NCBI GenBank assembly: GCA_964016885.1
Contig: OZ024749.1
Coordinates: forward strand, 48,112,001-48,176,000
DNA length: 64,000 bases
Origin: Eledone cirrhosa
Taxonomy: Eukaryota
Reading direction: 5' to 3'
The translations under genes and the position numbers were made by a program. The notes under the pieces were generated by a model. It was not told the DNA's origin, did not search any database, and was given only the letters and a program-made list of their open reading frames with translations. Positions within the stretch are counted from its first letter, which is position 1, and the number at the start of each line of letters is the position of its first letter. Of this stretch, positions 1,599-50,755 are shown piece by piece.

Positions 1599-1764
1599 CA
1601 TGAGGTAAATGGATTATCATAAAAACCGTGATGAATGATTGCTTTGGGATTTGCGTGGAACCATGAGGATTATGATGAATATATATATTGAATGATGATC
1701 ATAATAATAAGGACAACAATAACCAAAGTTTCTATAGAAGCTATAGGATAAAATGTGGTTTTAC

Positions 1765-1806
1765 CTTCAAGCTCAGAATTTTCTCTACGGGATTGGGTAC
1801 TGAGGA
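1765..1806 (-). CDS. NLGN: Candidate 42-nt neuroligin cassette microexon at the splice-site-B-equivalent position
   Basis: Polypyrimidine acceptor tttttttctttctttcag|, donor GAAG|gtaaaa. Length is a multiple of 3, phase 1/1, and it is open in the frame of the upstream exon: VLSTQSRRENSELE. Confidence 0.6.
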
Positions 1807-2319
1807 CTGAAAGAAAGAAAAAAACATCGGCCATCTTGAAGCTATTCTTTTACATAGCATCAAGCACGGGCAACTGACATCCACTTCCGGTTTGCCGCAG
1901 TTATTTGTCTTGACATATTTGCCAATTCTCTTCCATTTTTCTTTGCAATAAACCACACTCTTCGTGTCATTTCAGATTGTTTTCAATCTTCTCTATAGAA
2001 AATATTTCATTCAAATCTAACACTTAGCTGTATTTCATAAATTAATAATATATAATCTTTAACTTTATAATATTGGATGCTTTTTCTTTCAATATAATTT
2101 TATATTATGTGCTAAAAATATAGAAAAATGGAATTATTTTCTTTTAGCATGAAGAGATCAAATTATTTAAGCAAATATTGCACATATTTAAATGAATTTT
2201 GTTTTCCATTAAAATCTCTCTTGACTATAATTAGGTGATAACCACGTTCTAGTCTACACTTATGAATGCATCCACGTGGTTACTTTAATTGATTATAGAA
2301 ATTATGCATATATAAATAA

Positions 2320-11885: not shown

Positions 11886-12926
11886 GTGACAGTTGAATAG
11901 TTGTATTGAAATCTATTGTATCAACTTTCAATATATATACCCATAATGTTTTGTCGATCTAATACTTAGGTGGGGACCATATTCATTGTTAAGGACTGTC
12001 TTCAGCTACGAACTAGTATAAGCAAATATTATTCTTTTATATAATACCCGTAATATTTGACTTAGAAACATATCTGTGTTCATTATCCAGGAAATATGTC
12101 ATGGTGCATAAAATAAGGAAATATGACATATTTAATGATAGATAGATATTAAATGTAAAGATCATTTAAGAGCCATGTGTGCTAGCTTAAAAGTCGTATG
12201 CGCCACGAATAACATAGCTTCTTGACATTTGTCTTTAACGAAGTAATCTATATATAAAAAAAAATACTTTTGTTGAATCTTTAACACGTCATAAAAATAG
12301 TGTAACATTTTCGGTGTAATCTTTGAGAATTATTTATATAACTATGTTGAAAATGTCATTAGAAGTAACGCAATTTGGCATATTACTGAAAAACGTATTT
12401 TCTGCTTGTATAGGAAGTATTTAGCGTTTGTTATAACACATTATAAAATAACAAATGTACTTGAAAATACCATTATTGACTCGTTCTAAGATGTTTAACG
12501 TAATTATCATTTACTTTCGTTTCTTACAACCATCTAAATTATTTTCCTACTATACAAATACTAATGTACAATTTATACATTGTTCTATTTTTTCATATGT
12601 TACTCGCATAAATGTATAAAAAGAAGACAATATTAATTTTAGAGGCCTACACATTATTCCGGTGTATAAAAGATGTTTTAATATTCATGTATACTCATGA
12701 CATGAATCGTCTAAATTATCTTAAAATCTCCATTCTGTGTTTATGGTGAATGTACGAACCCAACGCTGTGTATGGTTGATTTTGCGAAGGACGACTTTTA
12801 TATGGTACTATAAAATCTGACGGAGCCTAAACGCTCCACATGTCTGAATGTGGTTGATTTCCTACAGAAAATGGTCAGACGGACAGAGAAAGGGGTTATA
12901 AAAAGAGTACGAAATATATATTCCAG

Positions 12927-13825
12927 GGCGGGTAAAATTCCCGAGATCCATGGACGAGTTCTCTCCAGCGGCCTCTGTCCCTCATTATCGTTGCCATGTC
13001 CTGCGTCTCCAACAGACCAGGGGCTGTTCTTAGGGCATCAACATGCGTTAACCTTGTTATTCCTCTTCCAGTGTCTCCATGTAGGGGCTCCCACAGGAGA
13101 ACTGAGTGCAATGTCAACTCTGGATATCGGTGAGCATGTCCAGTTAACCTCAGTCTCCTCTGTATCACTTTCGAGCTGACTTTTGGGAGGCTCCAATATA
13201 GCTCTGAGGTTTTCATCCACAGTGTATGCTGATTAATGTTCAGAGCCATACTCAGCCTTCTCGTGTAGCACCCATCCACCATCTGAGTGAGTTTCCTGGT
13301 CAGTGTCCAGGTCTCAGACCCGTACAGCAGCACAGACTCCACTACAGCAATGAAGAGGGGGATTGCAGGTATTTACGAAGGTCCGACTTCCACACCGATC
13401 TCAAGCTGTGGCACGCCGCCCGGGCTTTGCTCTTCCTCTCAACCACATCATCTTCCGTATTCCCAACCTTTGCTCCCAAATACAGGAAGTCATCAACCAA
13501 TTCTAGCGGCTTCCCGCCTACATTAGTGATCCCTTCTGGCTTCTCAATGTTCTCTATCAGATATTTTGTTTTAGTCTCATTCATTCTCAGCCCCACACTC
13601 ATCGACACAGTCTCAACCTCCTGCCTCAAATCCTCTGATTCCTTCACTGCATTTCTCACCAAAAATATATCGTCGGCAAATTCAGCATCCGATATCTTTT
13701 TCGCCTTAACTATCCTGCTCTGAGCCCGTTCTACAATAAAGCCAGAGTCTTGGTGTTTCTCCAGTACAAGGAGGTGCATACAATAGTCCACTACGATGAC
13801 GAATAGGTGAGGAGACAATGTTTCT

Positions 13826-13830
<5 letters not shown>
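12927..13830 (-). mobile_element. 5'-truncated RTE-clade LINE (RT C-terminal part and 3' end), frameshifted
   Basis: TLSPHLF..FADD..GLRMNETKTK..FLYLG, then ESVLLYGSETWTL..RRLRLTGH..LLWEP, typical of RTE ORFs. Split over two frames. Confidence 0.9.
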
Positions 13831-13868
<38 letters not shown>

Positions 13869-13873
<5 letters not shown>

Positions 13874-13949
13874 GATGACAGAGTTCTTTGAGATACTGTC
13901 TGGAGTACTCCAGGGAGATACATTGTCTCCTCATCATCTTCCGTATTCC

Positions 13950-13952
<3 letters not shown>
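13869..13952 (+). mobile_element. Inverted RTE fragment (DGMTEFFEILSGVLQGDTLSPH) with an internal strand switch
   Basis: RT motif GVLQGDTLSP on +. The last 21 bp equal 13446-13466. Confidence 0.8.
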
Positions 13953-14013
<61 letters not shown>

Positions 14014-14024
14014 TATATACATAT

Positions 14025-14172
14025 GGGAACAAGTAGGACCCCGTGGGCTGAGCTCAAACCGTTTCGACGGCTAATTCTGGATTAATTAGTCCAGAATTAC
14101 TCACTCTACTACCATAAGTAATGAGTAATGTGCGTTATGGTCAATCTGGTTCCTTACCACATTTCCCTCGTT

Positions 14173-26999: not shown

Positions 27000-27185
27000 C
27001 TTTCGTAACAGGTGAAACTAACAACAGATTCACCAACGCCGCCCCATGACCATGTCCGAACAGCGTCACCCTCTGCTTGTCGCCGTTGAAGCTCTCAATG
27101 TTTTCCTTCAGCCAATGTAACGCTGCGATTTGATCAAGTGTGGCGTAGTTACCAGAGGCAGTACCATCCCCCGTGCTCAAGAAAC
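27000..27185 (-). CDS. NLGN: Neuroligin coding exon (186 bp, phase 1/1)
   Basis: Encodes (G)FLSTGDGTASGNYATLDQIAALHWLKENIESFNGDKQRVTLFGHGHGAALVNLLLVSPVTK(G). Splices in frame to the 50606-50755 exon (VLG|FLSTGD). FGHGHG replaces the esterase FGESAG, so there is no catalytic Ser. Acceptor aacag|GT, donor AAAG|gtcagt. Confidence 0.95.
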
Positions 27186-29025: not shown

Positions 29026-29221
29026 CGAAGGAGTTGTAGTAAGGAACCAGATTGACCATAACGCAGCAGAGTACTCAATACTTAGTGTAGTAGAGTGGGT
29101 AATATGAGAAAATATGATCCCAACGCCGAGCTCAAGCTGTTTCGACGGCTATTTCTGGACAATTTAGTTCAGAAATAGCCGTCTATACGGCTTGAGCTCT
29201 GCCGTCGGGGTCATACCTTCT

Positions 29222-29224
<3 letters not shown>
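29023..29224 (-). mobile_element. Fold-back short element, family C
   Basis: Asymmetric hairpin centred near 29163, flanked by (TA)n on both sides. Confidence 0.85.
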
Positions 29225-29257
<33 letters not shown>

Positions 29258-29260
<3 letters not shown>

Positions 29261-29812
29261 CTGTATTTGGGAGCAAAGATTGTGAATACGGAAGATGATG
29301 TGTTTTAGAGGAAGAGCAAAGCCAGGGCGGCGTGTCACAGTTTGAGATCGGTGTGGAAGTCGGACCTTCGTAAAGACCTGAAAATCTTCATTGCTGTAGT
29401 GGATTCTGTGCTGCTGTAAGGGTCTGAGACTTAGAAACTAACCAAGAAACTCACTCAGATGGTGGATGGGTGCTACACGATAATGTTGAGGAGGGCTCTG
29501 AACATTAAACAGTATACACTGAGGATGAAAAACTCAGAGCTGTATGGGAACCTCCCAAACGTCAGCTCAAAAGTGACACAGAGGAGAGTGAGGTTAGCTG
29601 GACATGCTCGCCGAATCCAGAGTTGACATTGCACTCAGTGGTCCTGTGGGAGCCCCTAATGGACACGCTGGAAGAGGAAGACCAAGGTTAACGTATGTTG
29701 ATGCCCTAAGGACAGACACTGGTCGGTTGGAGACGCTGTACATGGTAGCGATAATGAGGGACAGAGACCGCTGGAGAGAACTCGTCCATGGATCTCGGGA
29801 ATTTTACCCGCC
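29258..29812 (+). mobile_element. 5'-truncated RTE LINE 3' fragment
   Basis: FLYLGAK..GRGRPRLTYVDALRTDTG..; inverted homolog of 12927-13490; flanked by (TA)n. Confidence 0.9.
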
Positions 29813-29880
<68 letters not shown>

Positions 29881-29884
<4 letters not shown>

Positions 29885-30065
29885 GAAAATTGCAAACTTG
29901 ACTGTCACCACACCTTATGAACCTGAAGATTGCGAAAGCATGAAAGTACTTGTTCAATTAACACTTAACATTTAATATTCCACCATACTATTTCATTCTA
30001 ATACCATTATAAATTTTAAAGGATTGTAAATAAAACGAGTAAATCAGACAAAATTGGAATTCCTT
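29881..30065 (+). mobile_element. HHR-bearing Penelope-like repeat, family A
   Basis: Reverse-complement match to 11700-11885. Confidence 0.75.
29918..29956 (+). ncRNA. Minimal type I hammerhead ribozyme motif
   Basis: Identical over 39 nt to the 11810-11848 motif; predicted cleavage after 29951. Confidence 0.8.
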
Positions 30066-50605: not shown

Positions 50606-50755
50606 CCAGCACTCCAAGCCGGTAGTTAACAGTTACAACAATGACTTCGCCGAAGCTAGCCAACACACTTCCGTCGTAGACGTTTCCGCTTCCGGAATCG
50701 TACGACTCACCATGGATAAATACCATTACGGGCATAGGTTCCGTGTAGTTCCATT
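50606..50755 (-). CDS. NLGN: Neuroligin coding exon (150 bp, phase 1/1), cholinesterase-like domain
   Basis: Encodes [49 protein letters not shown](G), matching the neuroligin pattern PVMVxIHGxSY..[24 protein letters not shown]. Acceptor tttcag|AATGG, donor CTGG|gtaagt. Confidence 0.95.

Follow-up and report, generated by a model that had tools for sequence, protein, structure and literature searches.

The window, the 64,000-nt stretch of Eledone cirrhosa DNA analysed here, carries on its minus strand part of a neuroligin gene. One constitutive exon (50606..50755) begins at the site-A junction and ends in RLGVLG, and the loose ends of RNA contigs join it to a second constitutive exon (27000..27185, minus strand; GFLSTG...GHGHG...SPVTK), which is spliced on both sides in the contigs of 4/4 runs. 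This second exon is 100% identical to an Octopus bimaculoides protein named neuroligin-4, X-linked, and its non-catalytic nucleophile elbow (GHGHG) has lost the catalytic serine. It has nine matches in the genome, the window locus being the only one with more than 60% identity; another of the nine (L002) likewise lacks the catalytic serine. Most exons of the gene match O. sinensis at 87–98% identity in tblastn segments. The 14 best PDB sequence matches of the O. sinensis orthologue (P0030) are all neuroligins (E 2e-140 to 1e-127), with cholinesterases next (1e-67), and its structural model matches the NL1 structures with a TM score of 0.93. A single transmembrane helix (residues 715–766, with a matching exon at L016) is followed in this model by a cytoplasmic tail.

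The gene has two versions of its large first coding exon, 49% identical and 1.13 Mb apart on the contig of the window, C9 (C9:49677041-49677403, L051, and C9:48546872-48547321, L050), both of which end in YVPR at a phase-1 donor. Since both lie upstream of one shared set of downstream exons, they are likely alternative first exons. Limpet, abalone and clam neuroligin isoforms differ over the whole N-terminal 140–185 residues, and the differences between oyster isoforms extend to the site-A junction; judging from such protein sequences, mollusc neuroligins appear to share a variable-first-exon architecture. Variation is seen elsewhere in these proteins too. Towards the end of the esterase domain, ahead of ...RRP, several have optional inserts of 3–18 residues at a further junction (P0055/P0056, P0062/P0063, P0071/P0072, P0078/P0020), scallop isoforms vary at site A as well, and five residues are added at the site-A junction (window 50755) in P0036, from the octopus cluster; no exact match for them was found in the genome, the fetched loci or the window, the 384-kb site-A intron being covered in part.

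An in-frame 42-nt exon in the site-B intron

Downstream of these exons lies a 42-nt exon of phase 1/1 (1765..1806, minus strand) that encodes VLSTQSRRENSELE, recognised from its sequence and from matches to O. sinensis and Sepia proteins. Its acceptor (1807..1826) consists of a polypyrimidine tract and a CAG, with tgtttttttctttctttcag preceding the exon, pyrimidines at 15/15 positions before the CAG and the first upstream AG at −30; its 5΄ splice donor is AAG|gtaaaa (1759..1764). The upstream intron, which follows the exon 27185-27000 ending in ...SPVTK G|gtcagt, measures 25,193 nt, and in the 200 kb of C9 examined on each side of the window the constitutive exon that follows (DGTLFQRAI...) was located, 37.4 kb beyond the 42-nt exon, with its start at C9:48076334. 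The preliminary description of this DNA had placed here, on minus 1806-1765, a 42-nt phase-1/1 exon with a strong acceptor and an AAG|gtaaaa donor, 25 kb downstream of the SPVTK|G exon, and all of this was borne out. It also gave the end of the upstream exon correctly, but the product of skipping reads SPVTK-DGT and not ...K-G. Read-through of the upstream donor gives GQSSLV*, as had been claimed, and because this stop occupies intron positions +18 to +20, the upstream donor could not be extended by as much as in vertebrates. Microexons are defined strictly as exons of 3–27 nt, and more loosely with a limit of 51 nt. The term microexon had been used for this exon, which is short and, being a multiple of three, frame-preserving; at 42 nt it exceeds the strict definition and falls inside the looser one.

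The 62,664 nt of intron that separate the two constitutive exons were scanned by rule (pyrimidine tract, YAG, no AG within 20 nt upstream, length of 3n and at most 60 nt, donor score, no stop). Two sense candidates and no antisense candidate emerged, although, since the thresholds were chosen with the 42-nt exon in view, this control for chance is indicative only. The second sense candidate, also in frame and with good splice signals, is an 18-nt exon encoding VLIEMS (L013:8269-8286, on the minus strand of C9), in the same site-B intron and about 4 kb before the next exon; it was absent from every protein examined. The neuroligin introns also contain broken, LINE-type, reverse-transcriptase-like fragments (window ~12900-14070 and 29150-29900), seen by eye in the translated frames.

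The RNA evidence comes from contigs of 8 of the 24 listed runs, four of which were placed on the upstream exon and four others on the candidate (window 1610-2300; X9, X10, X2, X4). The junction of position 27000 with the DGTLFQ exon, which is that of skipping, was the only one seen there in 4/4 runs, the same contigs joining the 50606 exon at their other end. Coverage of the 42-nt exon was found in 0/4 runs, in contigs of unspecified tissue from whose assembly rare variants are dropped, and this is no proof of its absence. The junction reads proposed earlier as a check were answered by contigs for the skip form, and the inclusion junctions were seen in none of the four other runs; inclusion is neither established nor excluded by these data, which document the skip form.

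Conservation in coleoids

In O. sinensis, the RefSeq isoform X1 (XP_029648263.1, P0030, 902 aa) holds all 14 insert residues, identical at 14/14 positions although the neighbouring exons differ (87–98% in most tblastn segments); isoform X2 (P0033, 888 aa) lacks the insert, and those 14 residues are the only difference between the two. The NLGN protein of Sepia pharaonis (CAE1331885.1, P0041) has VVSTQSRRENTELE at the same junction, identical at 12/14 positions, with two conservative substitutions (L/V and S/T), the RR and the Ser/Thr positions kept, and flanking residues that fit phase-1/1 splicing. For comparison, identity is 350/382 (92%) over the whole aligned Sepia fragment and 46/95 (48%) in the stalk, where octopus was aligned with a second coleoid protein (P0003). 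Octopods and cuttlefish separated some 270–300 Myr ago, and conservation across this split is not expected of intron sequence, which argues that the exon is real. Conservation in other coleoids had been set beforehand as a check and was found in both species with the frame kept. We regard it, above the chance-control scan, as the decisive evidence, and conclude that this is almost certainly a genuine, conserved coleoid cassette exon.

Among the cephalopod proteins that span the site-B junction, the insert was present in 2/13, both of them gene models (for the second cluster, 15 of the 34 members were listed), whereas the exon was skipped in 6/6 full-length cephalopod Logan proteins, and the O. 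bimaculoides, O. vulgaris and Argonauta models among those listed were without it. None of 21 candidate short proteins bore the insert at E ≤ 0.001, and a degenerate pattern of the insert gave 0 matches against metagenome contigs. Skipping dominates the RNA-derived records covered here for this exon.

That both carriers are gene models, and that no contig included the exon, would be compatible with a pseudo-exon copied between species by gene predictors. The Sepia peptide, however, stands in frame at the same junction and differs at 2/14 positions, and so must have been read from Sepia DNA; moreover, a 14-codon frame would not have stayed open in intron sequence since octopods and cuttlefish parted. 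Transcript evidence normally underlies the alternative isoforms in RefSeq, which counts against this explanation as well, and we give it hardly any credence.

Position and structure of the insert

The insert aligns over the SSB of human NL1(+B) (PDB 5OJK), in the loop before LFQRAI, and its assignment to the junction of vertebrate NLGN1 insert B was thereby upheld. In the P0030 model the insert (residues 264–277) forms a loop with pLDDT below 50, flanked by blocks of about 90 within an intact esterase fold; since only 2/70 sequences of the model alignment contain the insert, the low pLDDT is by itself no proof of disorder. With 2 R and 3 E the insert carries a net negative charge, and no N-glycan sequon was found in it or beside it (residues 256–285 of P0030), in agreement with the description of a charged insert that lacks an N-glycosylation sequon.

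In NL1, according to the available sections of the papers cited here and below, the SSB comprises nine residues between Gly295 and Leu305, carries an N-glycan at Asn300 and directly adjoins the Site I interface, whose core residues are named as H291, Y292, D384 and E394 (PMC5563082). MDGA binds about 7-fold more weakly in its presence, an effect of steric hindrance for which the glycan accounts only in part, and β-neurexin binding changes less than 2-fold (PMC5563082); binding of α-neurexin is blocked by SSB, which is described as confined to NLGN1 (PMC7486126), and the +B form is the major form of NL1 (PMC5563082, PMC7486126). The gene model of neuroligin-4 isoform X3 from the bird Apteryx (P0169) has a nine-residue, B-like insert with a sequon, though insert B is described as restricted to NLGN1. 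In octopus, the four Site I core residues are replaced by P, V, K and M (0/4 conserved), and the geometry known for neurexin may therefore not apply; none of the 58 invertebrate sequences in the alignment has the H291/Y292/D384/E394 set. Neurexin and neuroligin act in Aplysia memory, as reviewed in PMC3229692, which makes a neurexin partnership plausible; that the coleoid insert tunes neurexin binding would nevertheless be an argument by analogy only.

These observations bear on the question of whether the exon, even if real, could be a nearly neutral cassette of low-level use, placed in a site-B loop that tolerates inserts and tuning no ligand. Mollusc neuroligins differ from one another by several residues in the length of this loop, the RNA-derived records are dominated by skipping, the insert is modelled as a disordered loop and octopus does not share the Site I residues of vertebrates, all of which would be consistent with such neutrality. 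Against it stands the retention of 12/14 residues between octopus and cuttlefish, which is near the value of the folded domain (92%) and far above that of the stalk (48%), and which points to selection, acting either on the peptide or on the signals for its splicing. We therefore consider a neutral insert improbable.

Site-B inserts across bilaterians

Loop length at site B was compared in 27 protein clusters, using listed members only and at most 15 per cluster. Length variants were found in 8/27 clusters and, among the members listed, in none of the other 19. The octopus cluster and the cuttlefish-containing cluster show +14 residues; in scallops, Argopecten has an insert of +8, present in one Logan scallop protein too (P0198), and Mizuhopecten one of +10 (P0144 vs P0199/P0200; P0128 vs P0202); two species of the scorpion Centruroides have +6, and smaller differences were seen in Patella (+1) and in a Nephila prediction (+2). 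The inserts of coleoids, scallops and scorpions share no sequence. In honeybee NLG3 the site-B junction is an intron position, where the available text of PMC2570956 reports no splicing seen and suggests it as a possibility. Taken as sequences, these data indicate that the site-B junction is probably an old intron position at which optional inserts were gained several times; such inserts are not specific to cephalopods. The coleoid insert has the same junction as vertebrate insert B and is unrelated to it in sequence, and would thus be convergent, as had been suggested; it appears to have arisen independently.

Candidate regulatory signals

Ten YCAY motifs, nine of them at +67 to +137, lie in the downstream intron within 150 nt of the exon and form a candidate Nova-type enhancer (1628..1758, minus strand). 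There are none upstream and none in the 42-nt exon, while the constitutive exons have 3 and 2. A count of at least ten YCAY was reached by 0/412 windows of the flanking introns and by 4/1563 windows of other introns; against dinucleotide shuffles the enrichment was not significant (p = 0.076), and the tract could have decayed from an (ATC)n repeat. The genome has a Nova orthologue at C1:294370803-294372323 (L057) with three KH domains, whose best PDB match is Nova-1 (E 3e-47), followed by Nova-2; all three KH domains lie in one open frame of 559 codons, with no intron across it. In the agrin gene of Ciona, the inclusion of cassette exons is driven by YCAY clusters that lie 3΄ of them (PMC12445529, from its available text). 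The YCAY cluster and the Nova gene are together a better regulatory lead than the UGC motifs, and promotion of inclusion by Nova is the mechanism that we prefer, with about even chances of being correct.

The UGC motifs had been pointed out in the less AT-rich upstream flank. Four are indeed present (1857..1899, minus strand), in a flank with a GC content of 0.42 against 0.28, but at −53 to −93 they are too distal to be a good signal and constitute a weak lead: none lies within 50 nt upstream of the exon, all four falling within the upstream 100 nt, and at least four UGC per 100-nt window were counted in 2.7% of windows from the flanking introns (n = 619) and in 2.3% of those from other introns (n = 2345). 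In targets of the eMIC, UGC stands near the 3΄ splice site, the pyrimidine tract is long and so is the zone free of AG (available text of PMC8797185); this exon departs from them in its nearest UGC, at −53, and its first upstream AG, at −30. In the supplement of the same source, as far as available, a single Nlg2 exon (196 nt, constitutive) is given, and none for Nlg1, Nlg3, Nlg4 or Nlgn1. With distal UGCs, in a number reached by about 2.5% of intron windows, control by the UGC/eMIC route was judged weak.

The exon might still be functional by a route different from the one we favour, either through eMIC/Srrm234-dependent inclusion or because the insert is a cleavage or modification site that alters shedding, trafficking or glycan binding. 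For the first of these, the long pyrimidine tract and the four upstream UGC motifs resemble features of eMIC exons as described in PMC8797185; for the second, Sepia retains the dibasic RR and the Ser/Thr positions, and the A1 insert of NL1 acts through binding of heparan sulphate (PMC7486126). The A1 insert, however, is positively charged, whereas the coleoid insert is net negative (2 R, 3 E). We regard these alternatives as unlikely.

Discussion

Our analysis describes an optional, frame-preserving 42-nt exon at the SSB loop of an octopus neuroligin, conserved in a cuttlefish. We propose, as the probable explanation, that it produces a minor, regulated isoform in which the ligand surface is shielded by bulk and charge. 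With long introns on both sides (25 and 37 kb), the exon would be skipped by default. In some neurons, the Nova protein encoded in this genome would bind the downstream YCAY cluster and promote inclusion, and the longer, flexible loop would then weaken or retune the binding of an extracellular partner, neurexin or another, by shielding the neighbouring ligand surface through its bulk and charge and with no sugar involved. Ligand shielding itself we would put at roughly one chance in two.

A broader hypothesis, which we put forward tentatively and consider rather less probable than the proposal above, is that site B is a bilaterian hotspot, a ligand-gating switch with at least four independent origins (vertebrates, coleoids, scallops and scorpions), of which the coleoid version would be a Nova-driven, glycan-free cassette; together with its two first exons, one gene could in this way supply the diversity that vertebrates obtain from paralogues. 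Insert B is treated as limited to vertebrate neuroligin-1 in the available sections of PMC5563082 and PMC7486126, and if our hypothesis were true, site B would not be a peculiarity of vertebrate NLGN1. The coleoid cassette and the unrelated scallop and scorpion inserts would offer a test of whether a neuroligin 'splice code' has evolved repeatedly and of whether it needs a glycan. The exon is already present in public gene models, which are automatic and carry no comment on site B or on regulation, and our literature searches, which covered few subscription papers and for most hits the listing, found no description of a site-B insert in cephalopods or other invertebrates.

How does the coleoid exon compare with known systems? 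The SSB of vertebrate NL1 occupies the same loop and junction of the cholinesterase-like domain, is optional and in frame, and exists in forms with and without the insert, as occurs in coleoids. The differences are several. The sequences are unrelated, with 14 residues in octopus and 9 in NL1; NL1 has the Asn300 glycan and the coleoid insert is without a sequon; the +B form is the major one in NL1, whereas the coleoid form with the insert is apparently minor; and the Site I residues of NL1 are not conserved in octopus. Vertebrate insert B is made by an alternative 5΄ donor, of which no confirmation was found in our literature searches, while the coleoid insert is a cassette located 25 kb from the upstream exon and not a donor extension. 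The coleoid insert is therefore likened to insert B by position and is not homologous to it, since sequence, sequon and splicing mode all differ. The eMIC microexons (PMC8797185) are likewise short and frame-preserving, but the octopus exon, with 42 nt and distal UGCs, would be atypical among them. Parallels are also found in the scallop and scorpion site-B inserts, which lie in the same loop and occur in isoform pairs with and without the insert, yet have no sequence likeness to that of coleoids. Recurrence of neural exons at equivalent positions is described as common in a preprint on type I convergence exons, the available main text of which makes no mention of neuroligin (bioRxiv 10.64898/2026.09.05.749416); the coleoid exon resembles these in being short, frame-preserving, of independent origin and at an equivalent position. 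The closest counterparts are O. sinensis XP_029648263.1 and Sepia CAE1331885.1, which contain the same exon with 14/14 and 12/14 identical residues, respectively.
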